Source: a virus
IMG/VR virus record: IMGVR_UViG_3300035696_000013
Span: 68,624-132,623 of that record
Length of the DNA: 64,000 bases
Strand: one strand, 5' to 3'
Shown: positions 1,942-26,221 of the stretch, in pieces
Layout of the letters: the number at the start of each line of letters is the position of its first letter
How positions within the stretch are numbered: the first letter of the stretch is position 1
The notes under the pieces: generated by a model
The model's input: the letters and a program-made list of their open reading frames with translations, nothing else
Databases searched by the model: none
What the model was told of the DNA's origin: nothing
Translations under genes and position numbers: made by a program

Positions 1942-2219
1942 ATGGGTGTCTTTTAATGTTAACAACAAATAAAAAGATAGCAATTGGATACGCGGGAATA
2001 GGAGTACTCTACATAGGACTTCTTTTTCTCTTTCTTCTTTCTCCGGATAATTCTCACCTTTCGCACAGATCGAATATGCTCATTAATTTGTTTCCAATTG
2101 TCATCATAGTTTTCAGTGGAATTGCAACTTGGATATGCTGGACAGCAAGATAAACACTCTTCGCTGCTAAATTTCAGGATGAAATTGGTAAAAAGGAGTA
2201 TTGAGTGTTGAGGGAAACA

Positions 2220-8101: not shown

Positions 8102-9271
8102 ATGAAATTTTTAGGTAAGAACTTTCAACCTTGGGCCGAATTCAACCTAAATCTGGAAGGGTTAACCGTCTTGGTCGGTCCTTCGGATAAAGGTAAATCC
8201 TCGATTTTTCGTGCATTGAAAGGCTTGCTGCGCAATGAACTTCCCGCCACTTTTGTTCGTAATGGGCAACCTAATCCATTGGATCTTACATTAGAGGTTC
8301 CTGATCATACAATTCAGGCAATTCGTAAAGCTAATGGTTCTACAGAGTACATTGTAGATGGCGGTAAGAAATTCACTAGTTTGGGCGGAAAACTTCCTCA
8401 ACAAGTGATTGACTTGAATATGGGTGAGATTCAGATTGGGGAATATCATATTGATCCAATCTTTGCTTCTCAATTCGGTAGACAGTTTATGTTGGAAACT
8501 TCAGGTCCTACAGAATTGAACACCATCTTAGGCGCTTTCGCTTCCACAGAAAATCTAGAATTTGGCAAGAAACAAGCCAATCTGTTCATCACTCAAAAGA
8601 ATAATGAAGCTCGCACTCTAGCTCGTGAAATCAGCGAAGCTGAAGAGCGAAAGAGCAGATTGAGCAGTCTGCTTTCCGAAGCTACTGTGGTTAAAGATGA
8701 AATTGCTCGGATAGAACCTTTCGTTCGTTCGCTAGAAGCAGGACAATTCTGGTTGGGTAAGGTAGCCATCAGCCGTGCTCGTATCTTCCCCCTGCAGCAA
8801 ATCGTAGCTTCTCTTACCATACCTGATACGTCCCAGGCTCAGTTGTTGAAGCAGCAAAAGGACTATTTGTTACAGGCTGCTGAGAGTCTAAAATGGGCAT
8901 CTTTCTTGCGACAAGTTGAAACCGCTATTACACCTCTTACAATTCTTTGGAGCGAAATTGTAACACAAAATCGTCGGGTTAGAGCATTGAACGAAGTTTT
9001 GGTACAAGTTCAGCGAAAAGAGCAGCTTTCCAATCTTGATGTTATTCATAAATTGAATGTTTTGATTAAAAGAACAACCAACGAATTAGAAACAACTATT
9101 CATCAACAAGACAGTATTAAATACGCAGAGCAAGCCGCATTTTTGAAGAAACGAGTGGTCGCTAAACAATCGGAACTCGCTAGCTTAGAGAAACAAATCT
9201 CATCTCTACAGAAAACTAGCGGTCTTTGTCCAAAGTGCGGTAAACCATTGGAGCATGTCTGTGGATCTTAA
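8102..9271 (+). CDS. SbcC/Rad50-like ATPase, N-terminal half (ends in zinc hook)
   Basis: KNFQ..., GPSDKGKS Walker A, coiled coil, C-terminal CPKC; no Walker B or ABC signature. Confidence 0.75.
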   Translation: MKFLGKNFQPWAEFNLNLEGLTVLVGPSDKGKSSIFRALKGLLRNELPATFVRNGQPNPLDLTLEVPDHTIQAIRKANGSTEYIVDGGKKFTSLGGKLPQQVIDLNMGEIQIGEYHIDPIFASQFGRQFMLETSGPTELNTILGAFASTENLEFGKKQANLFITQKNNEARTLAREISEAEERKSRLSSLLSEATVVKDEIARIEPFVRSLEAGQFWLGKVAISRARIFPLQQIVASLTIPDTSQAQLLKQQKDYLLQAAESLKWASFLRQVETAITPLTILWSEIVTQNRRVRALNEVLVQVQRKEQLSNLDVIHKLNVLIKRTTNELETTIHQQDSIKYAEQAAFLKKRVVAKQSELASLEKQISSLQKTSGLCPKCGKPLEHVCGS

Positions 9272-13498: not shown

Positions 13499-14633
13499 GC
13501 AAGTTGCTGAGCTATTTTGTGAACGAATTAACAAAATTTTTGAATCCGAACAAACATTAGAAGCCGAATTCAAACGTAATTTTGAAAACCTTCCTTTCTC
13601 TCGTACAGATCACTGGCAAGCAATTTTGTATCGTGTCTTTAGAGATTGCTGGATGGAAAAGGGGCCAGCAGTTAAAGCCGAACCTACTGGCTATGATCGT
13701 CTAGCTGTACTTAAACAACTTTGTCCTATGCTGGACTACAATTTGTTCTCACAAGTGTTGTTGAATCTTCAGACTTACAATGGTTTAGCCTATCAAACTG
13801 CTGATGCTGAAAAAGAGATTGAACATTTAAAATCAGCTTGGGCCGAGAAACAGTATAAACTTGATCCTTTTGCTCCTAAAGTGAAAATGCTCAAGATTGC
13901 AGCAACAGCAGAAGAGCAAGAATTCAATACAGTTCTAAGCGCCATCCGTTCTCTCAGAATCATAGCTAACTTTACACCTATGATTAGTTTTCGAGTGTCG
14001 CCAAAAGGTTCAACTCCTGCCTTTGCCGACAGCAATAATGTCAGTATGCTAGGAATGGGAGCAGATAAATATCTAAAATTGCTGTCTTCGTTGGAAGCTT
14101 ACTACTTAATCTGGGAACCGGGTAGATTTATATCGGCTCAGCAGATGGGAGATGCAACTCCTGAGGGAATCAGATTCTTTGCACAGGGCATTCCTTATCC
14201 GTTTGTTTCTAAGTCTGGTGGGGAAATTCTTCAGGAAGTGTTGTTTGCTCGAAACTTGATGTATACAATCTTTAGAGCAATTGATGTCACTAGTACAAAT
14301 CTTATCCTTTTGCCGAGAATGAATTCTCTCTTAGTTGTAACGGATAAATCCAATGTAACAGTTAAACAATTACTCAAGAATTTGGAAGAGTATTACCCAA
14401 CGTTGAAAGTTCAAATAGGAAGCCGGATTCGTTCAGTAGAACAAGAGCATCCAATCTCTCGAGTTCCCGATCCTCCGGTATGGGCTATGAATGCAGCAAA
14501 GCAGATTTTTGGGCAACTTCCTCTTTCTCAATTTGACGGAACAAAGGATATGTTGGATCCTATTTCTGCTGCAAGAATAATTGAAAAAGAATGGGAAATT
14601 TTTTACGCAGAAAGAATTTCTGTCGAGCATTGA
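13464..14633 (+). CDS. hypothetical protein
   Basis: 389-aa ORF in the operon. Confidence 0.65.
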   Translation: MVLMNEMLGMYKQVAELFCERINKIFESEQTLEAEFKRNFENLPFSRTDHWQAILYRVFRDCWMEKGPAVKAEPTGYDRLAVLKQLCPMLDYNLFSQVLLNLQTYNGLAYQTADAEKEIEHLKSAWAEKQYKLDPFAPKVKMLKIAATAEEQEFNTVLSAIRSLRIIANFTPMISFRVSPKGSTPAFADSNNVSMLGMGADKYLKLLSSLEAYYLIWEPGRFISAQQMGDATPEGIRFFAQGIPYPFVSKSGGEILQEVLFARNLMYTIFRAIDVTSTNLILLPRMNSLLVVTDKSNVTVKQLLKNLEEYYPTLKVQIGSRIRSVEQEHPISRVPDPPVWAMNAAKQIFGQLPLSQFDGTKDMLDPISAARIIEKEWEIFYAERISVEH

Positions 14634-14637
14634 TTTT

Positions 14638-14871
14638 ATGAATTTTATTGACATTCTTAGCTGGACAGGTAATGTATTTATCTGTTTAGGTCTTTGGTAC
14701 ATCGGGACTAAAAAGTGGTGGGCATTCTTGTTCTCTATTATAGGCGAAGCAGTTTGGTTCGTTTATGCTATTGAAATTCGCATGTGGTCTTTAGCTTTCA
14801 TAACAGCAGTGTTTGCGGGTTTAGCGGTTCGTAATCTGTATCTTTGGAGGAAAAATGGCAGGTTCGTATAA
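14638..14871 (+). CDS. small 3-TM membrane protein (PnuC/PQ-loop-like)
   Basis: three TM helices, W-rich, ends in YLW. Confidence 0.45.
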   Translation: MNFIDILSWTGNVFICLGLWYIGTKKWWAFLFSIIGEAVWFVYAIEIRMWSLAFITAVFAGLAVRNLYLWRKNGRFV

Positions 14872-15214
14872 ACATTGCATTACGCCTGAGGGAAAATTCA
14901 GAAGCGAAGATTTCACTGATATGATAGAAAATCTCAGCGATGCTTATGAAGCATGCGAAGAAATGGTTTTCATGATTGATTTTCTCGCTGATGGTGATAG
15001 CTGTCGCATAGAGAATGCATTAGAAGCTTTTTATGCTTCTAAACAAAAAGAAATTGAAATGAAAAATGACTCAGAATTTGGTACAATAATTGGAGACGTA
15101 CATGGTGGTCAAATCATTTTAACCGAAACAGGTCAAAAGGTCTACCTCTCAATGGCTTTTAATCCCCTCACTGCTCAGCAACTGAAGGAAATTAAGGAAC
15201 AAATGGATGCTTAA
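14855..15214 (+). CDS. hypothetical protein
   Basis: GGAGG SD, 119 aa. Confidence 0.6.
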   Translation: MAGSYKHCITPEGKFRSEDFTDMIENLSDAYEACEEMVFMIDFLADGDSCRIENALEAFYASKQKEIEMKNDSEFGTIIGDVHGGQIILTETGQKVYLSMAFNPLTAQQLKEIKEQMDA

Positions 15215-15423
15215 GGATTCTTAGAAGTAAATGATAATAACAACTGTTAAACTCTATCCCGAACTTTTGATGTGGCCAGATGATTCATTTACATTAGAAT
15301 CCATTTGCCCTAAAGATTTTACAGAAACACCGAAAACACCAATTTTTCGTGGTTTTCCATATATTGGACCTGAAGTTGATTATAGAACAGTACAATGCAA
15401 TCTTTAAAATCAATCGCTAACGA

Positions 15424-15454
15424 ATACCTGATTTTTCGCTGTCTGCCGTATTAT
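15424..15454 (+). promoter_or_regulatory. phage promoter (TACCTGA-N16-GTATTAT) of tRNA array 1
   Basis: same bipartite motif and spacing as at 16611, 18752, 19391, 19673, 30247 and 54008. Confidence 0.7.
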
Positions 15455-15460
15455 ACGAAC

Positions 15461-15532
15461 ATGAACACGAATCTAAATTCGCACTTGTATACGCTGCTTA
15501 ATGGCAGCTGCGGCGAGATGTTGCTGGCCTAA
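15461..15532 (+). CDS. leader peptide MNTNLNSHLYTLLNGSCGEMLLA (putative attenuator of the Tyr/Leu tRNA array)
   Basis: ATG 6 nt after the -10 box (leaderless); Leu codons CTA, TTG, CTG, CTT and Tyr TAT match the downstream tRNAs. Confidence 0.7.
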   Translation: MNTNLNSHLYTLLNGSCGEMLLA

Positions 15533-15556
15533 AAACACTAGCAACCGATCGCAAGC

Positions 15557-15586
15557 AGCCGCCCGATGTGGCGGCTTTTTTATTTT
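15557..15586 (+). terminator. attenuator terminator
   Basis: AGCCGCC-cgatgt-GGCGGCT followed by TTTTTATTTT immediately before tRNA-Tyr. Confidence 0.85.
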
Positions 15587-15588
15587 AT

Positions 15589-15676
15589 GGAGTGGAAGTC
15601 ACAATGGTGTGACAGGAGGCTGTAACCCTCCCGCCCCTTGTGGGCACGATAGGTTCGATCCCTATCCACTCCACCA
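15589..15676 (+). tRNA. tRNA-Tyr(GTA)
   Basis: GGAGTGG/CCACTCC acceptor, CTGTAAC loop, long variable arm, GTTCGA, encoded CCA. Confidence 0.9.
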
Positions 15677-15739
15677 AGCTACAACGGTCCCGGTAGTCCT
15701 CTTCGGGCAACTGTGCGGGAATGGGAAAACCGCAACTAT

Positions 15740-15828
15740 GCCAGAGTGGTGGAATTGGTAGACACACTACGCTCAGAACGTAGCGGCAATTAACAGCCGT
15801 GCGGGTTCGAATCCTGTCTCTGGTACCA
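15740..15828 (+). tRNA. tRNA-Leu(CAG)
   Basis: cloverleaf, CTCAGAA loop, long variable arm, CCA. Confidence 0.92.
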
Positions 15829-15886
15829 AGTTTGATATATAAGGACATATATCTGTAGTAAAATGATATAATGTCGTATATACAGA

Positions 15887-15972
15887 GCGCCTGTGGTGAA
15901 ACGGCATACACGCTAGCTTGAGGTGCTAGTGATCGCAAGATCGTGGAGGTTCGACTCCTCTCAGGCGCACCA
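15887..15972 (+). tRNA. tRNA-Leu(GAG)
   Basis: GCGCCTG/CAGGCGC, TTGAGGT loop, CCA. Confidence 0.92.
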
Positions 15973-15992
15973 AAATCCTAGTATTAATCTGT

Positions 15993-16484
15993 ATGGATAA
16001 GAAATCCAAACAGTTAGGCATGAATTTTAGCACAGCATCTGCAAGATTAGATCGTATGATATTATTCATGCTGGTGAAAGAGTGCAATCGTGATACATGT
16101 TATCGTTGTAATAAGAAAATTGAACGATACCAGGATCTAAGTACGGAGCACAAAGAACCTTGGCAGGACATTGATTCAGCTTTGTTTTGGGATTTGGATA
16201 ACATTTCATTTTCACATCGTAGCTGCAATGCTGCAGCTGGAGCACGAGGCAGGTTGCCTGGAAATGAAAAAGCCTCTAAAGCTCCTTTTGGGACCGTATG
16301 GTGTTCGGGGCATAAAGATTATTTGCCTAAAGAAAATTTTCATCGGGAAGCTCGTAATAAAAGTGGTTTTTCAAGCTTGTGCAAAAAATGCTATAAAGAA
16401 CGAGAATATCCTGGTAGTTATGGCCGAGTGGCGAAATTGGTAGACGCGCATGGCTTAGAACCATGTGAGCTTGATCACTCGTAG
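15993..16484 (+). CDS. HNH-family endonuclease (homing-type) inside the tRNA array
   Basis: CYRC, STEHKEP, N.SFSH.SCN, C-terminal Zn-finger; 3' end overlaps tRNA-Leu(TAG). Confidence 0.7.
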   Translation: MDKKSKQLGMNFSTASARLDRMILFMLVKECNRDTCYRCNKKIERYQDLSTEHKEPWQDIDSALFWDLDNISFSHRSCNAAAGARGRLPGNEKASKAPFGTVWCSGHKDYLPKENFHREARNKSGFSSLCKKCYKEREYPGSYGRVAKLVDAHGLEPCELDHS

Positions 16485-16510
16485 GGGTTCGAATCCCTTC
16501 TCGGCCTCCA
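16422..16510 (+). tRNA. tRNA-Leu(TAG)
   Basis: GGCCGAG/CTCGGCC, CTTAGAA loop, CCA; discriminator is T. Confidence 0.88.
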
Positions 16511-16516
16511 AAGATT

Positions 16517-16603
16517 GGCCGAGTGGTGGAACTGGTAGACGCGGTAGCCTCAAAAGCTACTTCTCGCAAGAGAGTGGGGGTTCGACTCCCTCCTCGGTCA
16601 CCA
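16517..16603 (+). tRNA. tRNA-Leu(CAA)
   Basis: cloverleaf, CTCAAAA loop, CCA. Confidence 0.92.
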
Positions 16604-16657
16604 AATTATCTTACCTATCCCGTTGTTATCCTCCGTAGATTAAACATGGAGGATTAG

Positions 16658-17062
16658 ATGCTGTACTTCTCAAACAAGTGGGACATACTTGACATGGAAG
16701 ACCTCGCAGGAGGTCTCCAAATAGTCAGTCAGGGTCGTAGTAATCCTCCTATTGTCTTAGTTTACGTCTTCAATAAAGAAAAACAAATCTATTTTTACGA
16801 GATCTTTCGATGCCCGGTTACTCTAATGGGATTGGCCGAAGATCCCGATGCAATCATGGAAGCCAAATCAGAACAGGAAGCAATTGATATCCTGAACGGC
16901 ACCAGTGATGTCGCTGCGGCTGATATACTGATTGACCTTTCTGAAGGTCGTCCAGCTGGAGGCAGCAAGACCAAGCTACTCTTTAAGGGCACTCATCCCG
17001 CTACAAAGACAGCCGAATGGGTTCAAGCTTATTTGCAATCCATTGTCCCAGAAGTTTTATAG
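16658..17062 (+). CDS. hypothetical protein
   Basis: GGAGG SD and promoter motif at 16611. Confidence 0.6.
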   Translation: MLYFSNKWDILDMEDLAGGLQIVSQGRSNPPIVLVYVFNKEKQIYFYEIFRCPVTLMGLAEDPDAIMEAKSEQEAIDILNGTSDVAAADILIDLSEGRPAGGSKTKLLFKGTHPATKTAEWVQAYLQSIVPEVL

Positions 17063-17072
17063 GGAAAAGAAT

Positions 17073-17450
17073 ATGACCATCCTCGTTATCGACGATGAAG
17101 AAGATGTTTTGAAGGCTACGACTCGATATTTGAAAGATGCAGGATTTGATGTTTACGGTTCTCTAGGGGGAGAGAAAGGTGTTGAGGATTATCGTGAATT
17201 AGTACCTTTTAACAAGCGATTTGATTGTGTCATAACTGATTACAACATGTACGATATGGATGGTGTACATGTTGCTCTAGCTATTCGGAAAATTGAACCG
17301 AAACAAAAGATTATTATTTTCACAAATAGCTCAACTTTGGCTCAAACCTTTCACATTTATGGATTGAATGGTGTGAAAATAGTTGATAAAGGGAAGGGTG
17401 CTGGTACTTTGTTGACGGAGTTATGTGCTTTATTAGTGGAGTTGCAATGA
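17073..17450 (+). CDS. stand-alone response regulator receiver (CheY-like)
   Basis: ILVIDDE, DCVITDYNM..MDG, IIIFT, K. Confidence 0.8.
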   Translation: MTILVIDDEEDVLKATTRYLKDAGFDVYGSLGGEKGVEDYRELVPFNKRFDCVITDYNMYDMDGVHVALAIRKIEPKQKIIIFTNSSTLAQTFHIYGLNGVKIVDKGKGAGTLLTELCALLVELQ

Positions 17451-17773
17451 AAATCGAATTGTGGGAAATCCTGGTCCCGGTTAGGAACAAAGATGTTCCT
17501 ATCATCAAGCGTTTCCACAAGCGTTGGGATGCTAAGGTTCGAGCCATTACCGGAGGTCTTACTATTCGTCCGCCTGAAAAGGGGCAATGGCACAATTCTA
17601 AGATTGGTGCCGTAGAAGCAGAACAAATGATTCCGGTCAAGATTGCTGCTACACGAGAGCAGATGTTGCAAATTGGTCAAATGACCGCCGAATACTACAA
17701 TCAAGAAGTGGTCATGTTCTACCGTATCAGTGATGAAGTCATCTTCATGCGAAAGGATGGAAGCCTGTCATGA
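17447..17773 (+). CDS. hypothetical phage protein
   Basis: overlapping ATGA start. Confidence 0.65.
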   Translation: MKIELWEILVPVRNKDVPIIKRFHKRWDAKVRAITGGLTIRPPEKGQWHNSKIGAVEAEQMIPVKIAATREQMLQIGQMTAEYYNQEVVMFYRISDEVIFMRKDGSLS

Positions 17774-18081
17774 TGCCTCCTTGGGATATGACGAAGCACG
17801 AGCAAGCTGCGTTTGCTAGCAAGATTGCTGATGAACGTTATGCAAAAGTCATGAATTTGACTCCAAAGGCACGATTCAATTATTTAACAGCAAAAGGATG
17901 GGAACGAGTGAGCAAGTATACTGGTTCCGATTATATGTTTGTAACCTGGCGCAATCCCAGGAAAGAAAAAGGTCCTTGGGCTGTTATGAAGCAAACGCAA
18001 GCAATTCGATGCCAGATTTGGTACGACATGGAAGATGAAGGTTTGCTGATTCGAGCGAAAGAAGGATTGACAATTCTATGA
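17770..18081 (+). CDS. hypothetical protein
   Basis: coupled ORF. Confidence 0.55.
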   Translation: MMPPWDMTKHEQAAFASKIADERYAKVMNLTPKARFNYLTAKGWERVSKYTGSDYMFVTWRNPRKEKGPWAVMKQTQAIRCQIWYDMEDEGLLIRAKEGLTIL

Positions 18082-18299
18082 AGTTTAAGCCGGGTCAATA
18101 CTACTACACATGGTACGATAATGGCATTGGCATGACCACTGTTTTCTGCCGTGTAGTGAAAGTGACTCCGAAAATGGTCATCATTCGTGGCGAAGATTGT
18201 AAAAATACAAAGCGATGGATGCAGAGTTACTTCAAAGCTAACTATAGCCGGGTTGGCCCAAGTGATTGGCACCCGCAGATTCCGTTGGGAGAGGAGTAA
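18078..18299 (+). CDS. hypothetical protein
   Basis: coupled ORF. Confidence 0.55.
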   Translation: MKFKPGQYYYTWYDNGIGMTTVFCRVVKVTPKMVIIRGEDCKNTKRWMQSYFKANYSRVGPSDWHPQIPLGEE

Positions 18300-18305
18300 A
18301 ATAAC

Positions 18306-18560
18306 ATGTATTTTGATCCAGGTATTATTTTTGTTCTAATCATTTTAGCTGTGCTTGTGTTCGCTTCATTTGCTGGAAGTGATCGTGACCCCGGACTTGA
18401 TCGTAGTATGGATTGGCACCGTCGTAATGGGGATTATCGTGTGCAGTATCTCGATACAATTGATCCTCGAACGGGAAAATTTGCGGTTTCACAACCATTT
18501 ACATACGAAGTCGCTCTGTCTTATGCTCATATGTTCAACGGGAGAGTTATCTCCAGATAG
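18306..18560 (+). CDS. small membrane-anchored protein
   Basis: GAGGAG SD, N-terminal TM. Confidence 0.55.
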   Translation: MYFDPGIIFVLIILAVLVFASFAGSDRDPGLDRSMDWHRRNGDYRVQYLDTIDPRTGKFAVSQPFTYEVALSYAHMFNGRVISR

Positions 18561-18799
18561 GCAGGTCAGTCATGGCTTTCTATGTTGATCTCTCGGATGA
18601 ATGTAAGGATTTTAGCAAAGTTTGGATTTATATAGTAGCAGTGGTGGTAATCATGTTTGGGTCCGTTTGTGGTCTCATTCTCTGGCTAATTAGCAGGTAT
18701 TCTCCTCTCCTCCTTCGCCTACTCGCACAACACAAGGGATGAAAAACTTCGTTACCTGATAAGTTAACTTTTTAAGTAGTATGCAAGTGAGGAGTTACA

Positions 18800-19381
18800 A
18801 TGAAAAAGTTGTCTACCTTGGCTTTGCTGATTTTATTTTCATCTCTTTCTGTGCTCGCTCAAAATGTAAAACCACCACTTCCTCCTAAGCAATTGTCCTT
18901 CAAGGGACCAATTAAAGTTGCTATCGGTAACGAGAATGTTGACCCGCATGTAAAGGCTCAATTTCTCAACGCGATCGGCAATTCAGAACGATATGTCTAC
19001 ACAACTGACGATGAAACAAAAGTCATCAATGTATTTCTAGTCTGTTCTCACCCTTTAAATGGTAAAAATGAATCAATTGGAACAGTATGTGCTCTTACAG
19101 TTAACTACATTTCTCCTCTCTTTCGTGGAATTGCAATTTCTCTAGATATTTTTGTTCTCGCTTATCCTGATGATGTCAATGTTGGTCAAAAGGTATTCGA
19201 AAATGTGGTAGAACTAACAACAAATGAGAAATTAGACGAGGCCGAGGCTTTGGCTGAAAATGTGGCTACTATTTATTACAATTTTGGATTGGACGATTGC
19301 AAATCACCCGCCAAGAAACCCGATACCAATCCTGAACAGGAACCCATACTTCCTCCCGACACTACTATTGCTAAGACCTAA
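18800..19381 (+). CDS. secreted/periplasmic protein
   Basis: Sec signal MKKLSTLALL..VLA-Q; own promoter at 18752; GAGGAG SD. Confidence 0.7.
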   Translation: MKKLSTLALLILFSSLSVLAQNVKPPLPPKQLSFKGPIKVAIGNENVDPHVKAQFLNAIGNSERYVYTTDDETKVINVFLVCSHPLNGKNESIGTVCALTVNYISPLFRGIAISLDIFVLAYPDDVNVGQKVFENVVELTTNEKLDEAEALAENVATIYYNFGLDDCKSPAKKPDTNPEQEPILPPDTTIAKT

Positions 19382-19427
19382 TTTTCTTGTTTACCTGATT
19401 TTTCCGTTTATCCCGTATTATACAAGT

Positions 19428-19657
19428 GGAGAAAGCGGGACCAGTAGGTTCTAAATTCTTCCCCCGAAATTGGTGACGACCTGCTTAAGGGTTGCGCAGC
19501 CCAAGTTGCCGAGGACGGGATTATAGTCCACTGTAAGAGCAGGGGTTTCTAGAGCCTTGTGGTGGACAGATAACTAAGCTAAGGTATGGAACATCAGACG
19601 CCAAATTGCGGCGTCGAGGAAGCAGGGTTAGTGAAGATGCTGACCCTGCTTTTTCTT
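19428..19657 (+). ncRNA. stand-alone ~230-nt structured RNA
   Basis: lies between the promoter at 19391-19421 and the terminator at 19621-19657; nested stems; no good + strand ORF. Confidence 0.55.
19621..19657 (+). terminator. intrinsic terminator
   Basis: AGCAGGGTTAGT-gaagat-GCTGACCCTGCT followed by TTTTCTTT. Confidence 0.85.
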
Positions 19658-19672
19658 TTAGAAAGAATTTCT

Positions 19673-19703
19673 TTACCTGATTTTTCAACTTTCCACGTAT
19701 TAT
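19673..19703 (+). promoter_or_regulatory. phage promoter of tRNA array 2
   Basis: TTACCTGA-N16-GTATTAT. Confidence 0.7.
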
Positions 19704-19815
19704 TAGAACGACAGGCCAGAATTTCCGTCCAGCAATAGAGCGCAAGCGGATATTGCACTGGATCGGCGATCAGCGGAAGAGGACCAGCCATCCTTACTGA
19801 GCCTGAGAGTAAAAT

Positions 19816-19878
19816 ATGCGATTTATGAACCCAATGATGCGACCGCCTATGTCGCTCGGGGATGGTACTGGTGGTTAA
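19816..19878 (+). CDS. leader peptide MRFMNPMMRPPMSLGDGTGG (putative attenuator of the Pro/Met/Phe tRNA array)
   Basis: 5 Met, Pro CCA/CCG/CCT and Phe TTT in the first 12 codons; 3' half pairs with the downstream hairpin arm. Confidence 0.65.
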   Translation: MRFMNPMMRPPMSLGDGTGG

Positions 19879-19998
19879 TCATGTTTTGTGGTGATGATTA
19901 GCTCCTCAATGCCCCGAGCCGGAAATGGCTGCGGGGTTCCGCCTAAGTAGTTCCCTCCTGCAGTAATTTCCTAGCTCGGTTGAAAAGTTTAGATTTCT

Positions 19999-20072
19999 CG
20001 CGGAATCTTATAACGGAAGTATACACGCGTCGGAAGCGTGAGGTGGGAGTTCGATTCTCCCTTCTGCGACCA
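19999..20072 (+). tRNA. tRNA-Pro(CGG)
   Basis: CGCGGAA/TTCTGCG, CACGC-GTCGGAA-GCGTG, CCA. Confidence 0.8.
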
Positions 20073-20077
20073 AGTTT

Positions 20078-20164
20078 CGGGGTGTAGGCAGGTAAATGGT
20101 AGCCTTCCTGCTTTGGAGGCAGGTGTCAATTATGACCTTGGAGGTTCGAGTCCTCTCACCCCGA
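20078..20164 (+). tRNA. tRNA-Pro(TGG) with long variable arm
   Basis: CGGGGTG/CACCCCG, CCTGC-TTTGGAG-GCAGG, GTTCGA; CCA not encoded. Confidence 0.8.
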
Positions 20165-20208
20165 CTTTCGTGACTTCTTGAGTATTAGTAGAATGCTCAA
20201 GAAGGTTC

Positions 20209-20859
20209 ATGATAATGTACACTGTCTATAAAACAGTGAATTTAGTCAATGGTAAGTTCTACATCGGAGTCCATAAAACGGACAATCCGAATGATGACTA
20301 TCTCGGAAGCGGGAAGCTCATCATACGAGCCATTGAGAAGTATGGTCTTCAAAATTTCCAGAAAATCATTTTGGAGACATTTGATGATTTAAGATCAGCA
20401 TTCAAAATGGAAGAAGAACTTGTAGCAAAAGAATTAGGATTGCCTGGTTGCTACAATCTTCGTAAAGGTGGAGAAGGTGGATTTGATTGGATAAATCAAA
20501 AGAATCTCCATAGTACAAAAGAAGGATTAAAACGAATTCGAGAGTTGCAGGAAAAAGATCCTAATTTCTGGGATCAAATTTGTAAAAAGCGTAGTATGGA
20601 TAATCCCGATTGGGTAAAAGCTTGTTCAGAGAGAATAACTACTTTTGGAAGATCAAAAATTTTTAAAGGGCATAAGCATTCTTTAGAAGCTTTAAAGAAG
20701 ATTTCTGAAAAAGCAAAGATGCAAAAAGGCAAGCGCAATTCTCAATTCGGAACTTGTTGGATTTACAAAGATAACATAGAGCGAAAAATTAAGGTTGCTG
20801 ATTTGGCGATGTTTCTATCAAATGGATGGAAACAAGGTCGTAGAAGTTACAGGGCATAG
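20209..20859 (+). CDS. GIY-YIG (Seg-like) homing endonuclease
   Basis: VYKTVNLVNGKFYIGVH, YLGSG, YNLRKGGEGG, NUMOD-like GHKHS. Confidence 0.88.
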   Translation: MIMYTVYKTVNLVNGKFYIGVHKTDNPNDDYLGSGKLIIRAIEKYGLQNFQKIILETFDDLRSAFKMEEELVAKELGLPGCYNLRKGGEGGFDWINQKNLHSTKEGLKRIRELQEKDPNFWDQICKKRSMDNPDWVKACSERITTFGRSKIFKGHKHSLEALKKISEKAKMQKGKRNSQFGTCWIYKDNIERKIKVADLAMFLSNGWKQGRRSYRA

Positions 20860-20926
20860 CTTAGTCTGGTAAAGCGCGTGCTTGGGGTGCACGAGAGCGG
20901 AGGTTCAAATCCTCTTGCCCTGACCA
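20850..20926 (+). tRNA. tRNA-Pro(GGG)
   Basis: CAGGGCA/TGCCCTG, TTGGGGT loop, CCA. Confidence 0.9.
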
Positions 20927-20940
20927 AGTTTAGTTGTTGT

Positions 20941-21011
20941 GCCTCGCGATAGTCTGGAGAAGTTCGTAGCGGCTCTACGAATAGCTGGGTCAGAACCAGC
21001 GCGGGGAGCCA
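20941..21011 (+). ncRNA. aberrant tRNA-like RNA ending in CCA
   Basis: CCTCGC/GCGGGG acceptor, TTCGTAG/CTACGAA arm, GCTGG/CCAGC T-like arm, non-canonical loops. Confidence 0.5.
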
Positions 21012-21016
21012 AGTTT

Positions 21017-21093
21017 CGGAAAGTGGCTCAGCCTGGAAGAGCACACGCTTTGGGAGCGTGGGGTCGCGGGTTCAAATCCCGCCTTTCCGACCA
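21017..21093 (+). tRNA. tRNA-Pro(TGG)
   Basis: CGGAAAG/CTTTCCG, TTTGGGA loop, CCA. Confidence 0.92.
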
Positions 21094-21135
21094 AAGTTTG
21101 GTCAATCTCTAAGTATTAAACATTGGGAGATTGAA

Positions 21136-21624
21136 ATGGAACATGTACCGGGTATTGGGAAGATCACGGTTACAACGATAACGGGAGATCAACCCAAATG
21201 GGATTCTTCGAATCCCGATCCTGATTTTCGATATCGTGGGGCAGAAGGTACATTTGTAGACGAATGGCTGGCTCAGCATCCGGCTAGTGAGGAAGAAGCT
21301 GTAGAAGGTCTGACTTCAGATCGTCTAAAGGTAGCTTCAGGAGCCGGATACACACGAGGATTCGAAAAGGAAGCGGCTGAGATCTCAAGATACGGCTCTA
21401 TGGAAGAGTTTTATGCTTCGTTTGAGCATTGTGACTTCTTTGCCGATATGCCTGAGATTCCGTTCAAGTATCAGTTCTTAGTGGAGATGCACAGACGAGG
21501 TCGTTTGAGAAATTACGAACTGAATGAAGAGATTAAGGAAGCAAGTAGTAAACGTCAAATTACTCCTGCTGTAGAGCCGAAAAAGGCTCCAGTGATAAAT
21601 TTGGCAGCTGATTTTGATTTTTAG
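21136..21624 (+). CDS. hypothetical protein within the tRNA array
   Basis: GGGAG SD inside a hairpin; ATG at 21136. Confidence 0.6.
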   Translation: MEHVPGIGKITVTTITGDQPKWDSSNPDPDFRYRGAEGTFVDEWLAQHPASEEEAVEGLTSDRLKVASGAGYTRGFEKEAAEISRYGSMEEFYASFEHCDFFADMPEIPFKYQFLVEMHRRGRLRNYELNEEIKEASSKRQITPAVEPKKAPVINLAADFDF

Positions 21625-21627
21625 TAT

Positions 21628-21701
21628 GTCGGTATAGTTCAATGGTAGATCTGCGGTCTCATAAGCCGACGACAGAGGTTCGATTCCTCTTACCGATACC
21701 A
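21628..21701 (+). tRNA. tRNA-Met/Ile2(CAT)
   Basis: GTCGGTA/TACCGAT, CTCATAA loop, CCA. Confidence 0.85.
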
Positions 21702-21742
21702 AACTTTCTTTTTTGTTTTGTCAGATTAAGTAATAGACGTTT

Positions 21743-21819
21743 GCCGTCGTAGCTCAAGGTGCATAGAGCATCTGATATTTAATCAGAGGGTTGAAAGGCG
21801 CTACTTTCCGACGGCTCCA
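21743..21819 (+). tRNA. atypical tRNA-Lys(TTT)-like
   Basis: GCCGTCG/CGACGGC, TCTGA-TATTTAA-TCAGA (A33), T-loop GCGCTA lacks TTC; CCA. Confidence 0.55.
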
Positions 21820-21901
21820 AGTTTAAGGAGGAGATTCATGGCTACACCGGACATCACTACCCATACTGCGTAAAGTGTGGGCAGTCGGAAAGGTAAAGTC
21901 A

Positions 21902-22201
21902 ATGAATCATCCTCGCAGTCGCAGAGAGCGTCGTGCTGTACGCGAAGAAATTATACAGCATCGTAAGTGGATCGTTACCCGAATTTGGCACCGTGGCTCG
22001 TATTATAGTAGCAATGAGCGGGAACGAGAATGGCTCAGAAATTTTGAGTGGGGCAAGTACGCAAAGTACAATTTAAATTGCGGATGCTCAATGTGCCATT
22101 ATAGCAAGTATTATTCATGTAAGCGCAGACGTCGTTGCGCACTGAATAGAGCTAATTCACAGGCGGAATTTCGCCGGATGGATAAGTTAGCAGGACGGTA
22201 G
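21902..22201 (+). CDS. Arg-rich basic protein with CxCxxC
   Basis: RSRRERR, CGCSMCH; preceded by a uORF at 21838-21873. Confidence 0.6.
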   Translation: MNHPRSRRERRAVREEIIQHRKWIVTRIWHRGSYYSSNEREREWLRNFEWGKYAKYNLNCGCSMCHYSKYYSCKRRRRCALNRANSQAEFRRMDKLAGR

Positions 22202-22372
22202 CGATGAGCATTTTGACAATGCAAGAGAAGTTGCAAAAGACTCTTGAACTTTTTGGCGTCACTAGTATCAAGAGGATAGAACAAAGAAATGGAGATTTCT
22301 TTATTCATCGTATTGACGGTACGAATTGGGTGATCCGTCAAGGAAGTGGCGGCGTAAAGGCTTGTTAAGTTT

Positions 22373-22416
22373 TCGTGATGGCATATAGCTGAACTGGTCC
22401 GAATCCAGCATCACGA
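22373..22416 (+). ncRNA. mini tRNA-like RNA lacking an anticodon arm
   Basis: TCGTGATG/CATCACGA stem plus CTGG-TCCGAAT-CCAG T arm. Confidence 0.5.
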
Positions 22417-22505
22417 TAAAACTTTAGCAACTGGAACAGGAGGTGCCGGGATGCCAAACGAACCGGGACAAGTTTCCAGGTGCAAAGTTTAGCATGATTT
22501 CTGAC

Positions 22506-22589
22506 TGCGGGGACGTGCTCCGGGTGCACGTGAGACTCATAACCTCACGCCTTTGGCAAAGTGGCGTTCGATTCCCACCCCCGCTACCA
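22506..22589 (+). tRNA. tRNA-Met(CAT), initiator-like, extended variable loop
   Basis: 1:72 mismatch, GCGGGG/CCCCGC, CTCATAA, CCA. Confidence 0.75.
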
Positions 22590-22599
22590 AAATTTCTAT

Positions 22600-22677
22600 C
22601 GCGGAGTAGAGCAGCCAGGACAGCTTGCCTGCCCCATAAGCAGGAGGTCGGTGGTTCGAATCCATCCTCCGCAACCA
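22600..22677 (+). tRNA. tRNA-fMet(CAT)-like
   Basis: C1:A72 mismatch, CGCGGAG start, CCTGC-CCCATAA-GCAGG (C33), CCA. Confidence 0.85.
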
Positions 22678-22703
22678 AGGTTTGGTACACCATATTTAAA
22701 AGT

Positions 22704-23335
22704 TCCGGTTGGCCAGAGATGCCAAGCACCTCTGAGAGACGCTGGCGTCTCGCGCTAACCGAATCAATTTCGCTAGTGCTGTGACATTACAGCTTGTTTG
22801 CAGTGCACGTGGCAACCGGGCCGCACATCCGGACTAGCGATTTCTAGTTTGTGCGTCATGGGAGAACCGATGCCAAGAAATTATTGGTAAGTTTCCATGG
22901 ACTCGGCGGTACGAGAGCAGTAAATAAAATTGAATCCCTGGTATCCAGGCAACAAGATCGGTGGCAGACTTACAGGTAATCAATCCTGGTGCCTCGCCTT
23001 AATGGAAAAGCATCCAGCCGTCGCTCGTTGTCTGAATATCAGGGATTTGATTCGCTGCTCTTGGAATTTGTAGGTTTCCTGCTTCCTAAAAGCAGGTGGC
23101 GGAGTGGTCGGCGTGAGCGTTTCCTACTTCGTAAAAGTAGGTGATGGACCGATGTATCGTAGCCCCGTTTTTCACTTCGTAAAAGTGAAGATAGTCCCAG
23201 CCCTAATAATGACTGGGTGGTTGCTAAACCCCGCACGTTTCCAGACGTAAACTGGATGGTGGAGGCGACCTGAGAAATCGGGTCGCCCCAGTAGTTTTGG
23301 TGAAAGTTATGAATCGCAAACGCTACACAACCGGA
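22704..23335 (+). ncRNA. large structured non-coding region (one large RNA or an array of small RNAs)
   Basis: 630 nt with no credible ORF, dense stems and repeated hairpin motifs, between tRNA-fMet and tRNA-Phe. Confidence 0.6.
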
Positions 23336-23380
23336 GAACGCTTTAGTTGCTAACTCAGCAATTAAGTCGGTAGTCTGTGT

Positions 23381-23456
23381 CCGGTGGTAGCTGATGTGGT
23401 CTTAGCGTCGGTCTGAAAAACCGAAGATGGGAGTTCGATTCTCCCCCACCGGGCCA
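23381..23456 (+). tRNA. tRNA-Phe(GAA)
   Basis: CCGGTGG/CCACCGG, TCGGT-CTGAAAA-ACCGA, CCA. Confidence 0.9.
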
Positions 23457-23494
23457 AATCTTCTTCCTCAAGTTTACCCAGTATTACAGTCGAT

Positions 23495-24265
23495 ATGAAT
23501 CATTCCTTTGATCCAACTTGGAAAGTAGTTCCTATCTGTGATTATCAAAAGCTGGATGTTCGTCCCGAAGATCTCTTAAACAATGGTGATTTTCGCAAAT
23601 GCGAGACTTATCGAGGTGGCGGAGGATATGATCAGTTTCCTGCCATTTGTGAAAAACGATTTGGTATCCGTGCTCACGCTCAATTTGTTGTTCAACTTTA
23701 TGGTTGTAATTTAGATTGTCCTTACTGTTATGTCACTCGTTCGGGTGTATGGGGAAAGTGGAAATCCTATACAACTGAAGGACTAGTCCAAGCTTACAAA
23801 GACAGCGAACAGCAGATTTTCCATCTTATGGGAGGAGCGCCAGCAATCTATCTGAATCAATGGCCAGACTTGATTCTAGCTCTTCCCGATACAGCTATTT
23901 TTCATTCAGATTTCTTGCTAACAGAACACAAATACGACGAGAATATACTGCAAGTTCTTCGTTCGTTACAGACAGAACGCAAGATGTTATTCGCTGTGGA
24001 TATCAAGGGTGTAACGCCTGACAATTATGAAAGGAACACTCGTAAGTTGTTTAAATACAGCTTGTTCTGGGACAATCTGAGTAAGCTCGTAGACAATAAA
24101 ATTAACTTCTATCTCACTTTCACTAATCCGGATGAGAATTACTTACCCCTGTTTAAACTTTTCTTAGAAGGAGCGTTTGGAAGTCAGATATTAGACGACA
24201 GTTTTGTCATTTCTCTCATTCAATATCATACTGCTCCGTTTGTTGATTTCTTACCTATGAAATGA
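23495..24265 (+). CDS. radical SAM protein
   Basis: GCNLDCPYC (CxxxCxxC), LMGGAP. Confidence 0.75.
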   Translation: MNHSFDPTWKVVPICDYQKLDVRPEDLLNNGDFRKCETYRGGGGYDQFPAICEKRFGIRAHAQFVVQLYGCNLDCPYCYVTRSGVWGKWKSYTTEGLVQAYKDSEQQIFHLMGGAPAIYLNQWPDLILALPDTAIFHSDFLLTEHKYDENILQVLRSLQTERKMLFAVDIKGVTPDNYERNTRKLFKYSLFWDNLSKLVDNKINFYLTFTNPDENYLPLFKLFLEGAFGSQILDDSFVISLIQYHTAPFVDFLPMK

Positions 24266-24441
24266 ATTTCTACTTGATAGGTAGGAGGCACCTTTCTATG
24301 CTATCTATCTTTAAATTGGCACTTGAGTTAGTCGTTGCAGCTATTTTTGTAATAGCGGGCATCAAATTGGGCGCAAAATATCCCACTCTTTCAGCAAAAG
24401 TTAACACACTTTTGAGTTGGGCCAAGAAAGAAGTCTAATCG

Positions 24442-24672
24442 ATGTTGGCGCTTCTTCAAAGTGCAGCAGAAGTTGCAGCAAAACATAAGGCTGATCTTGA
24501 CGATCGTATTTTGCATTATGCCTTATTTGCTGGAGGAGCATTTGCTGTTTCCTTTTTCAAGATAGGATTCGATTACATAGCAAAACGCACTTGGGATAAA
24601 ATTGACGAAGAAGCTAAAGACATTAAAGAATTCAGGGCATGGAAGAAAGCCGGAAAGCCGAAAGCATCTTAA
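24442..24672 (+). CDS. small membrane protein
   Basis: single TM and basic tail. Confidence 0.5.
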   Translation: MLALLQSAAEVAAKHKADLDDRILHYALFAGGAFAVSFFKIGFDYIAKRTWDKIDEEAKDIKEFRAWKKAGKPKAS

Positions 24673-24683
24673 GGAGATAAATT

Positions 24684-25034
24684 ATGGCTCGCACACTTAT
24701 TCAAGCAACTTTAAACACTCTTGCTACTACGGGAGCTAGTTCGCCTCAATTGGACGCAACATTTACTCCTGCTGATCCTGTAAGTTTTAACATGTTTACG
24801 GCTACAGGGCGCGACATTCTAGTCATTTGGAATTCTGATACCAATCCGCATACTTTTACACTGCACTCTGCTCCTGATGCTGCTGGTCGCATTGCTGATG
24901 TAGTTAACTATCCTGTTCTTGCAGGAGCATATGCTCAAGTAATCATTCCCGCGTCTGCATTGTTTACACAGACAGACGGCAATGTTTACATCGATGCTGA
25001 TTCTGCTCTTGTAAAATTCCTACTAACACACTAA
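24684..25034 (+). CDS. putative virion structural protein
   Basis: AAGGAG SD; beta-rich Ala/Thr composition. Confidence 0.55.
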   Translation: MARTLIQATLNTLATTGASSPQLDATFTPADPVSFNMFTATGRDILVIWNSDTNPHTFTLHSAPDAAGRIADVVNYPVLAGAYAQVIIPASALFTQTDGNVYIDADSALVKFLLTH

Positions 25035-25264
25035 TTTTAGGGAACTACTTGTGGGAAGAACCCTAGCGTAGCAGGGAGTTCGCTGGGCGCACTTCTTCCT
25101 AAAACTCTATGAGTATAGATGGCACCACAAGATAGGAAACCTGCGCCATTTTTCGCTAGTTAAAGCAACAAAAACGTTAGAAGCAGTATTATTCGAATGC
25201 AGTAAAACCAACTGACTTTAAGCAATTGGGTGTTTAGTCAGTACACCGTTAAAGGAGAACGTCC

Positions 25265-26221
25265 GTGGTATATCGTAAACAATTAGTAGCATGCGTCAAA
25301 GTCAACGGTCAAATTTTGCGCGAGACCGATGACACTGTAACAATCCCCTTTGGATCTGAATATTCAATCCTACTGAAAAACCTTAACTCTGTTCGTGTTC
25401 AAGTGAAAGTATCTGTTGATGGTACAGATGCTACTGAAGGCACTTGGCTTGTTATTCAACCAAACTCCAGTCTTGAACTAGAACGCTTTATTCGCAATGG
25501 TAATTTGCAGGCGGGCAACCGATTCAAATTCATTCATCGCAGTAAAGAAATTGAAAAACATCGTGGTCTTAAATCTGATGATGGTCTAATCCGTATCGAG
25601 TACATGACTGAAAAAGTTACTCGGACGGAAGATGTTACAGTTCGCCGTCATTACTATGACGACTATCACTACTGGCCTACCATTTATCCGCATTACCCTT
25701 GGCCTTATAAGTACTGGTGGGACTATCCTTACAATCCTAATGTTGTTTACACTTCCACGCTCGGTTCTGTTGAAACTTCGGGAAACATTTCGTCTGCTAA
25801 TTGCGGATCAAATAATGTAGATGTAAATTGTTCTGTCGGAGCAGCCGGATTGAGTTCTAGCAACTTTACCTCGCATGTGAATAACAATTCCAGCTTCAGT
25901 GGTCAAGGTGTAATGAAGTCAGCTTCAGCACGATCTTTGCGCTCTTCACAGAAGAATGAAGTTCGTGAATCTCCAATTGATGACTCGGGTATCACGGTTC
26001 CTGGCAGCGAGAGCTTCCAGCAATTTCATCACACTGGTGCTTTCCTTGTGCATGAGCAGAGCGAAGTTATTGTTCTGCGTCTGCGTGGTGAAGTTGGTGG
26101 AAAAGTAGTTGCCAAAGCTGTGACCGTTAAGAGTAAGCCGCGTTGCACAAGTTGTGGCAAATCAAATCGAGGCTCAAGTAAGTATTGTGCCAGCTGTGGT
26201 ACTGCACTTGAAATAATCTAA
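25265..26221 (+). CDS. hypothetical protein with C-terminal double zinc ribbon
   Basis: AAGGAG SD; CTSC..CASCG; terminator at about 26225-26260. Confidence 0.7.
   Translation: MVYRKQLVACVKVNGQILRETDDTVTIPFGSEYSILLKNLNSVRVQVKVSVDGTDATEGTWLVIQPNSSLELERFIRNGNLQAGNRFKFIHRSKEIEKHRGLKSDDGLIRIEYMTEKVTRTEDVTVRRHYYDDYHYWPTIYPHYPWPYKYWWDYPYNPNVVYTSTLGSVETSGNISSANCGSNNVDVNCSVGAAGLSSSNFTSHVNNNSSFSGQGVMKSASARSLRSSQKNEVRESPIDDSGITVPGSESFQQFHHTGAFLVHEQSEVIVLRLRGEVGGKVVAKAVTVKSKPRCTSCGKSNRGSSKYCASCGTALEII

Follow-up and report, generated by a model that had tools for sequence, protein, structure and literature searches.

The 64,000-nt window analysed here is the right-hand 64 kb (positions 68,624 to 132,623) of the 132,623-bp IMG/VR virus record IMGVR_UViG_3300035696_000013. 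At 22366-23494 on its + strand lies a stretch that is poor in open reading frames (ORFs) and contains two transfer RNAs (tRNAs), one tRNA-like RNA and about seven folded modules that are not tRNAs, with the same short linker found behind both the tRNAs and the non-tRNA modules. The stretch is probably the distal part of a polycistronic RNA operon that a large uncultured peat phage encodes on the + strand and that would be cut at these linkers, a reading that is held with moderate confidence. It builds on the anatomy of the stretch, on the statistics and lineage conservation of the linker, on the wcaG-type identity of 23074-23261 and on the recurrence of the wcaG-type unit beside tRNA and transfer-messenger RNA (tmRNA) genes in other phages, all of which were observed directly. 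The coordinates of the individual features are collected in Table 1.

A shared linker punctuates tRNAs and other RNA modules

The linker has the consensus A-A/G-G/A-U-U-U and is short, unpaired, and A-rich followed by U-rich. The initial annotation, which had been made from the sequence alone, had described A-A-G/A-U-U-U spacers bounding the modules, and these spacers are real. To count them, the 5-mers AGUUU, AAUUU, AGAUU, ACUUU and GGUUU were scored when starting no more than 2 nt after CCA. Such a 5-mer follows 18 of the 24 CCA-ending tRNAs of the genome, compared with 77 of all 1972 CCA sites (3.9%). As a plain word, AAGTTT is not enriched over the window (73 found versus 64.7 expected). 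Within 22360-23480, 10 of the 13 linker 5-mers were found, by our own count, in unpaired junctions between stem-closed modules, while the three others correspond to GUUU in two hairpin arms and in the first wcaG-type unit; the count is partly circular, since the module boundaries were themselves drawn from the stems. Where tRNAs abut, the entire 5-7-nt spacer consists of the linker motif, with a U at position -1, and the linker therefore serves one tRNA as its trailer and the following tRNA as its leader.

The linker is lineage-specific. In the closest IMG/VR relatives (G002 and G003, with a radical SAM protein 63% identical to the one encoded directly downstream of the array), it follows 14 of 32 tRNAs, whereas behind the tRNAs of two more distant phages it was found in 0 of 17 and 0 of 19 cases. 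Among the literature matches listed, no phage tRNA linkers of the AAGTTT kind were described in title or abstract, in a collection that covers few subscription journals. The preference of RNase E for RN↓WUU sites, to which the initial annotation had appealed, is documented in print (PMC5222698), and AG↓UUU fits it. The linker may serve as an RNase E site.

A wcaG-type array at the 3' side of the stretch

The segment 23074-23261 belongs, as a divergent member with four units, to the wcaG kind of RNA. All four units (H1 to H4) share the wcaG build, with GUUUC ahead of a hairpin, a UAAA-type loop and a UGG-rich tail, and the first units follow each other at start-to-start spacings of 45 and 48 nt. 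At Rfam gathering scores the stretch contains tRNAs only. The wcaG model (RF01761) matches 23070-23155 with 36.1 bits, which is below its gathering score of 42 bits, at E values of 5.1e-5 for the 706 nt searched and 2.3e-6 for the genome of the phage, and H1-H2 align over the full 98 positions of the model. The initial annotation had regarded a match to a known Rfam family as evidence against its reading; such a family does appear in this part of the stretch, though at a score under its cut-off. No tandem repeat array was reported by TRF at a score of 30, and the units have only a 21-nt half in common, at 81-86% identity. An array of the ToxI kind (type III antitoxin), defined by near-identical tandem repeats and a toxin gene, was not found either: TRF gave no array and the next gene encodes a radical SAM protein.

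The unit recurs in other viruses. A 25-nt pattern derived from H1 and H2, in which 20 bases were fixed and the stem positions left free, matched nine IMG/VR contigs compared with approximately 0.1 by chance (our estimate, made with no collection size given), and the free stem positions were complementary in all nine. In 596 Gb of cellular genomes the same pattern gave two matches versus about one expected, which is chance level, and one of the two lies in coding sequence without stem complementarity. Three of the nine loci are bona fide wcaG RNAs by the Rfam cut-off (L182 with 91 bits, L180 with 57.7 and L184 with 53.1). Moreover, tRNA or tmRNA genes are present in seven of the nine loci, four of these seven being copies of one phage lineage. 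The unit sits between tRNA-Gln and the tmRNA position in L178, L181, L183 and L185 (the L183 locus ends ahead of the tmRNA) and 38 nt behind a permuted tmRNA in L179; in L180 there is an overlap between the wcaG match and the start of tRNA-Leu, and the unit directly precedes a gene in L182 and L186. The L178 and L179 units carry the tail GGUGGUGGAGGCGG. L179 also contains a match resembling the twister-P1 ribozyme (8651-8713, 51.6 bits, cut-off 67.2).

The stems of the unit covary. In an alignment of 14 units, from the window and seven other loci, 94.9% of the cells were paired and five of the seven pairs were changed on both sides, giving a covariation score of 0.614 compared with 0.24 in shuffles, none of 500 of which reached it, and no more than 0.196 with slid partners; six of the rows derive from the pattern that fixes 20 of 25 positions, and the rows H4 and L031 are poorly aligned. 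In the 28 related virus records the wcaG model gave two weak matches only (28.5 bits in G005 and 15.8 bits inside the tRNA cluster of G002). A further pattern, TAAAAGNNGGTGGTGGAGGCG, returned seven loci, five of them already known and two in glycine-rich coding stretches, and was discarded. The 3' end of hairpin A (CAAGUUUCCAGGUGCAAA, 22469-22486) is 78% like the start of H4 (23234-23251) and may be a decayed wcaG-type unit.

The proposal of 2010 (PMC2864571) treated wcaG as a candidate riboswitch regulating in cis, which in marine cyanophages or marine bacteria is located in the 5' untranslated regions of exopolysaccharide or high-light genes. The array shares with this RNA the GUUUC(C), a 6-7-bp stem, the UAAA loop, the UGG-rich tail and covarying stems. 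It differs in having four units, the last two of which are not seen by the two-unit model, in coming from a peat phage rather than a marine setting, and in lying inside a tRNA array with tRNA-Phe and a radical SAM gene next to it rather than in the 5' untranslated region of the named genes. The literature passages at hand place no wcaG RNA in a tRNA array, although genomic contexts of wcaG RNAs may be given in supplements (PMC2864571, additional files 1-3; PMC9964418, Table S7). The occurrence of the hairpin in a tRNA array of a peat phage and the tRNA or tmRNA genes in seven of nine loci make it more probable that wcaG, for 16 years a candidate riboswitch, is a small RNA linked to tRNAs than that it switches sugar genes.

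Following the original proposal, the array could instead act as a leader in cis, in which it would form, together with the GC hairpin 23262-23290, a riboswitch-like attenuator of read-through into tRNA-Phe and the radical SAM gene. The array does end in a GC-rich hairpin followed by AGUAGUUUU, the weak wcaG-like match in G005 lies approximately 1 kb from the radical SAM homologue, and the placement of the unit in L182 and L186 would suit such a role. However, a tRNA gene and 200 nt separate the array from the ORF, the hairpin was not called as a terminator, four consecutive units would be an unusual build for an aptamer, and the prevalence of tRNA and tmRNA genes around the unit, including the overlap with tRNA-Leu in L180, does not point to a leader. 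This role is consequently regarded as quite improbable.

Folding and origin of the remaining modules

All modules of the initial annotation are present on the + strand where it had placed them, with uneven support from folding. Single modules were compared with 200 shuffles each and the whole gap between tRNA-Met and tRNA-Phe with 20. This 703-nt gap (22678-23380) folds at -265.9 kcal/mol on the + strand (z-score -7.5, 0 of 20 shuffles) and at -236.5 kcal/mol on the minus strand (z -5.1), and in all six modules folded on both strands the + strand was the more stable one. Strong folds were obtained for module B, the rod and 23160-23300 (z -3.7), each with 0 of 200 shuffles, and moderate ones for the minihelix, hairpin A and 23066-23160 (z -2.1, 7 of 200). 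Module B has two competing inner folds, with a pair probability of 0.64-0.89 for its local stem. The rod reaches -57.5 kcal/mol on its minus strand, and its arms are 79% alike as inverted repeats; the differences between the arms are, in our reading, all transitions, four of which become G-U pairs on the + strand and two mismatches. It is a candidate processing stalk for a double-strand-specific enzyme of the RNase III type. The segment 23262-23299 is a candidate for either a weak terminator-like end or a last linker.

The low energy of the whole gap could also indicate one large structured RNA of 630-700 nt, and the initial annotation had offered, besides a polycistronic cassette co-processed with the tRNAs, a single RNA of about 630 nt closed by complementary segments at 22704 and 23328. 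The GOLLD and ROOL large RNAs do lie beside phage tRNA genes, and the stretch resembles them in being structured non-coding RNA that adjoins such genes. The 8-nt complements exist (22704-22711 and 23328-23335), but the closing helix has a pair probability of 0.0016 compared with 0.89 for a local stem on the same bases, and 8-mer complements of this kind occur at chance level (5 versus 3.5 +/- 2.5 in shuffles). The stability comes from local modules, so that the stretch is a chain of these and not one fold, and no match to GOLLD, ROOL or any other large RNA of Rfam was obtained at gathering score or at E values up to 10. A single closed RNA is exceedingly unlikely. The co-processed cassette, in contrast, agrees with the shared strand, the shared linker and the arrangement in the relatives.

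Three of the modules are linked by the motif GAUGCCAA, which occurs three times within 427 nt and four times in the whole window on both strands (2.6 expected). Each of the three copies lies in a hairpin loop, on stems that differ (CCGG/CCGG, CAGAG/CUCUG and ACC/GGU). The motif begins with AUG CCA A, and the copies could be read as three starts of mini-ORFs (Met-Pro-...) encoding leader peptides that sense tRNA supply, with three tRNA-Pro genes (ARAGORN) lying directly upstream. All three copies do open frames, of 13, 21 and 6 codons; AGGAGGU precedes copy A by six nt, so that hairpin A can also be read as AGGAGGU-N6-AUG heading a 13-codon frame (22451-22492), and GGGAG precedes copy C by five nt. 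Copy B, however, has no Shine-Dalgarno sequence and only that of copy A is strong, the peptides are alike in Met-Pro only, and all three motifs sit in hairpin loops. GGAGG with a start codon is found 20 times in the window, approximately half of them heading frames of 13 codons or fewer. Translation of these frames therefore appears highly improbable. Two very short frames (22439-22492, 13 codons, and 21827-21875, 11 codons) with a strong GGAGG Shine-Dalgarno sequence lie directly behind RNA modules.

As judged by similarity, the cassettes A, B and C, the cloverleaf-sized module and the rod are orphans. Neither ARAGORN nor Rfam calls a tRNA in 22373-22416, 22426-22483, 22706-22761, 22770-22840, 22855-22903 or 22912-23063; the cloverleaf-sized module has no Rfam match at E values up to 10, and no paralogues of the orphan parts were found elsewhere in the genome. 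When 22300-23500 was compared by blastn with 50,697 GenBank phage records, 51 were matched, and among the matches listed all fell within query positions 266-388, a span that takes in tRNA-Met together with the 3' end of the tRNA-like RNA. A blastn search of the radical SAM loci described below with 21600-23500, and a search of 27 whole related virus records at the DNA level, matched only tRNA parts or stretches of at most 21 nt, and no look-alike stretch was found in the other genome windows compared. A search of IMG/VR with the pattern GATGCCAA..AAGTTTCC gave at least 117 loci, none of which, among the matches listed, lies within 600 nt of a tRNA, and was set aside as noise.

In the tRNA cluster of G002, stem-closed modules likewise occupy the gaps between tRNAs. 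Three of eight gaps were matched by at most 3 of 200 shuffles, and one rod (z -4.3) is present, as is a gap with what is left of a T arm; these modules show no sequence similarity to those of the window. The gap with the T arm, between tRNA-Val and tRNA-Ala, belongs to locus L031 of this closest complete relative (1926-2061, minus strand). It closes with a lone T arm, GAGGGUUCGAUUCCCUC, that lacks an acceptor end and is a remnant of a tRNA.

Within the window, the T arm of the minihelix 22373-22416 is identical in 15 of 16 positions to that of the phage's own tRNA-Val(CAC). The minihelix, which joins this arm to an acceptor-like stem, is therefore tRNA-derived, and judging from the T arm it is probably a tRNA remnant or mimic. 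The tRNA-like RNA 22507-22589 has a T arm and 3' end that align to other tRNAs of the genome, while its anticodon loop is 9 nt long or mismatched and an extra base precedes the CCA; it was not called by ARAGORN, and the tRNA-Sec model of Rfam gave a borderline 21.6 bits at 22507-22584 (cut-off 47). The adjoining tRNA-Met(CAU) has a C/A mismatch as its first acceptor pair, as bacterial initiator tRNAs do, and its anticodon stem lacks the three G-C pairs.

Such features could mean that the non-tRNA modules are debris of turnover in the tRNA array, that is, decayed or rearranged tRNA genes and duplication scars that are transcribed without a function, with linkers surviving merely as the flanks of former tRNAs. 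The T arm shared with tRNA-Val, the presence of several non-canonical tRNA-like RNAs, slot sizes of 53-105 nt as in tRNAs, the T-arm remnant in the G002 array and a duplicated tRNA-Gly with identical flanks in another cluster of the genome are all in line with this explanation, as are the absence of homologues for most modules and the chance-level folding of three of them. Yet tRNA features are missing from module B, the rod and the wcaG-type array, which are nevertheless the best-folding parts, GAUGCCAA recurs in loops on differing stems, and the wcaG-type unit is kept with covariation across unrelated phages. As an account of the whole stretch debris is rather unlikely, and it is possible for the tRNA remnants and for those modules that fold weakly.

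Several observations weigh against a processed operon. The only listed runs that contain the stretch are two peat-metagenome DNA runs. Linker 5-mers are not clearly denser in the region (11.6 per kb) than in the genome (8.3 per kb), and to this is added the circularity of the junction count. The wcaG assignment suffers from its score under the Rfam cut-off, from the lack of a second match over H3-H4 at E values up to 10 (the model sees H1-H2 only), and from the behaviour of the model in 14 control genomes, of which three gave weak matches at E values up to 1 and 12 at values up to 10, none above the cut-off. The cloverleaf-sized module and hairpin C fold no better than shuffles, as does 23290-23380 (z -1.1, 19 of 200), and homologues of the modules A, B and C, the cloverleaf-sized module and the rod were absent from the collections searched.

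Table 1. Features of the tRNA and small-RNA stretch; coordinates refer to the window, and the last column gives the fold z-score and the shuffle count.
Feature	Coordinates	Strand	Description	Fold
Linker UAAGUUU	22366-22372	+	stop codon of ORF 22204-22368 runs into linker	
Minihelix, 44 nt	22373-22416	+	8-bp closing stem and T-arm-like hairpin (CUGG UCCGAAU CCAG), no CCA	z -2.8, 2/200
Linker UAAAACUUU	22417-22425	+		
Hairpin A	22426-22483	+	GAUGCCAA (22450-22457) in loop of inner CCGG/CCGG stem	z -2.5, 4/200
Linker AAAGUUU	22484-22490	+		
Non-canonical tRNA-like RNA	22507-22589	+	CAU anticodon, long variable arm, true T arm, 3' UACCA	
Linker AAUUUCUAU	22591-22599	+		
tRNA-Met(CAU), C1/A72 mismatch	22600-22677	+	ARAGORN; Rfam tRNA 52.2 bits, first pair marked non-standard	
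Linker AGGUUU	22678-22683	+		
Module B	22706-22761	+	8-bp closing stem CGGUUGGC/GCUAACCG; hairpin with GAUGCCAA (22718-22725)	z -6.3, 0/200
Linker AAUCAAUU	22762-22769	+		
Cloverleaf-sized module, 71 nt	22770-22840	+	closed by UCGCUAGU/ACUAGCGA; without tRNA loop signatures	z -1.4, 15/200
Linker UUUCUAGUUU	22841-22850	+		
Hairpin C	22855-22903	+	GAUGCCAA (22869-22876) in loop	z -1.3, 22/200
Imperfect rod, 152 nt	22912-23063	+	about 35 bp in three segments, small branched tip; -66.0 kcal/mol	z -5.9, 0/200
Linker GAAUUUGUAG	23064-23073	+		
wcaG-type unit H1	23074-23118	+	GUUUCC, 7-bp stem, CCUAA loop, tail UGGCGGAGUGGUCGG; Rfam wcaG and alignment	
wcaG-type unit H2	23119-23166	+	GUUUCC, 7-bp stem, CGUAA loop, tail UGAUGGACC	
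wcaG-type unit H3	23167-23236	+	GUUUUUC, stem, CGUAA loop, extra hairpin, tail UGGUUGC; alignment only, not Rfam model	
wcaG-type unit H4	23237-23261	+	GUUUCC, short stem, GUAAA loop, tail AUGGUGGAG running on to 23264	
GC-rich 10-bp hairpin, then AGUAGUUUU	23262-23299	+	from folding; not called by terminator scan	
tRNA-Phe leader, 81 nt	23300-23380	+	one 10-bp hairpin; no significant fold	
tRNA-Phe(GAA)	23381-23456	+	ARAGORN	

Processing of the putative operon

In the operon favoured here, canonical tRNAs would share their slots with tRNA-derived remnants or mimics (22373-22416 and 22507-22589), the other slots being taken by the three GAUGCCAA hairpins, the cloverleaf-sized module, the long rod and the four-unit wcaG-type array. 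Each unit is closed by its own terminal stem and set off from the next by a linker, at which the tRNA-processing enzymes of the host would cut the precursor. RNase P prefers a U at position -1, and could cut directly 3' of the U run at the tRNAs and possibly at the acceptor-like closing stems too; P1 C4 RNA and 4.5S RNA are both substrates of RNase P without a full tRNA body. The 5-7-nt trailers behind CCA would be removed by an RNase E-type cut (AG↓UUU) or by 3' exonucleases. RNase III needs roughly two turns of duplex, and the 35-bp rod, which is long enough for it, would be a likely site of double-strand-specific cleavage. Co-transcription, the cutting enzymes, the stability of the products and their functions are what we infer; the expected products would be discrete small stable RNAs.

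Two known features of bacterial tRNA processing fit such a scheme: RNase E can cut right after CCA (PMC5291269), and the spacer of a tRNA operon can itself be a functional RNA, as with leuZ-3'ETS (cited in PMC5222698). The stretch resembles the polycistronic tRNA operons of E. coli, which are processed by RNase P, RNase E and 3' exonucleases, in its short single-stranded A/U-rich spacers beside CCA, but differs in that a nearly fixed linker of 5-7 nt is reused behind non-tRNA modules.

The products would be analogous to those of the T4 tRNA region, which yields RNAC and RNAD (the small stable RNAs also known as species 1 and 2), with a role left unexplained in the available passages of PMC3014915 and PMC9697503. 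As in T4, non-tRNA small RNAs are found on the tRNA strand inside a phage tRNA cluster that also contains a homing endonuclease gene. The two differ in number, with two small RNAs in T4 and about seven cassettes with a standard linker here, and in that expression has been shown for RNAC and RNAD whereas the cassettes are known from DNA alone. There is no sequence similarity between them in the blastn comparison with phage records, where among the matches listed only the tRNA-Met and tRNA-like part was hit. The homing endonuclease of the T4 tRNA cluster is SegB.

Possible base pairing with tRNAs

A speculative function for the cassettes, suggested by complementarity and considered unlikely, is that of trans-acting RNAs that would base-pair with tRNAs, T-box-like but in trans. 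The segment UGGUGGAG of H4 is complementary to CUCCACCA, the 3' end of the phage's own tRNA-Ala(GGC), tRNA-Ala(UGC) and tRNA-Tyr and of the tmRNA consensus of Rfam. The H3 tail UGGUUGC is complementary to GCAACCA of the C1/A72 tRNA-Met, GCAACCA being the usual 3' end of bacterial initiator tRNA, and the H1 tail UGGUCGG is complementary to CCGACCA of tRNA-Pro(UGG). AUGCCA, present in the three GAUGCCAA loops, is complementary to UGGCAU, the anticodon loop of tRNA-Ala(GGC), a match with a chance expectation of approximately 4% by our arithmetic. Among UGG sites, 4 of 9 in the array have at least 7 nt of complementarity to a tRNA end, two of the four overlapping, compared with 166 of 2315 (7.2%) genome-wide. 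At the other wcaG-type loci, however, the match to the tRNA ends of the same locus extends over only 6-7 nt and is weak, and L179, L180 and L184 have at most one CCA-ending tRNA.

Under this pairing scheme the array would be like T-box leaders in logic only, with UGGN facing an NCCA end and a codon-like triplet in a loop. It differs in having no Stem I, T-box sequence or antiterminator, and it would act in trans; Rfam gave no T-box match at gathering score or at E values up to 10.

Genomic setting

The CheckV completeness of the 132,623-bp record is 41%, and the record is therefore probably a fragment of a phage genome of about 300 kb. In contigs assembled from the two peat DNA runs, only source-like contigs span the stretch while others reach tRNA parts only, and no sequence variants were found within the modules. 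ARAGORN identified 27 tRNA genes in the record. The window contains 12 of these, which without exception lie on the + strand, as do the ORFs near the array. The stretch forms the end of the third tRNA cluster of the record. It is preceded by a 54-codon ORF (22204-22368), after which 1.1 kb are without a credible ORF. Between tRNA genes of the same cluster lies a GIY-YIG homing endonuclease gene (20209-20859; phrog_314, E 1.6e-39), whose match to TIGR01453 reaches 42.6 bits and is under the cut-off of that model. Over 14500-25500 there was no excess of sigma-70-like promoters (25 found versus 20.1 expected) or of terminators (10 found versus 9.3 expected).

Outside the window, in the first tRNA cluster of the genome (C1:55015-55236), two tRNA-Gly(UCC) genes have identical 12-nt leaders and identical 16-nt trailers. 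The pair looks like a recent tandem duplication of approximately 148 nt.

Downstream of tRNA-Phe lies the radical SAM gene (23495-24265; Pfam PF04055, with a weak NrdG2-like match). Its protein (23495-24262) has 713 homologues, the best of which apart from itself is 72% identical, and 28 homologous loci were found in IMG/VR at up to 63% identity. Of the 27 IMG/VR loci scanned, tRNAs are present in L021, L022 and L027 only and a tmRNA in L006; no tRNA was found at L002, nor upstream of the gene in nine loci of JGI metagenomes (56-77% identity). Several distant relatives (L006, L021, L022 and L027) thus also have the gene embedded among tRNA or tmRNA genes. A tRNA lies within about 100 nt of it in L022, in L027 and, on the downstream side, in L021, and in L006 a permuted tmRNA precedes it by 1.4 kb and a wcaG-like match follows 1 kb behind it. 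The radical SAM enzyme may act on tRNA.

Implications for phage tRNA clusters

The tRNA clusters of phages are usually annotated as tRNAs separated by empty spacers, while here approximately 60% of 1.1 kb is made up of other folded RNAs, and these non-tRNA RNAs are wired into the punctuation of the tRNAs. The presence of the linker in the closest relatives as well points to a design of RNA operons that is general among the large soil and peat phages of this group. If the cassettes do pair with tRNAs, the phage would sequester, sense or shield chosen tRNAs of the host or its own, as well as the tmRNA, during infection.

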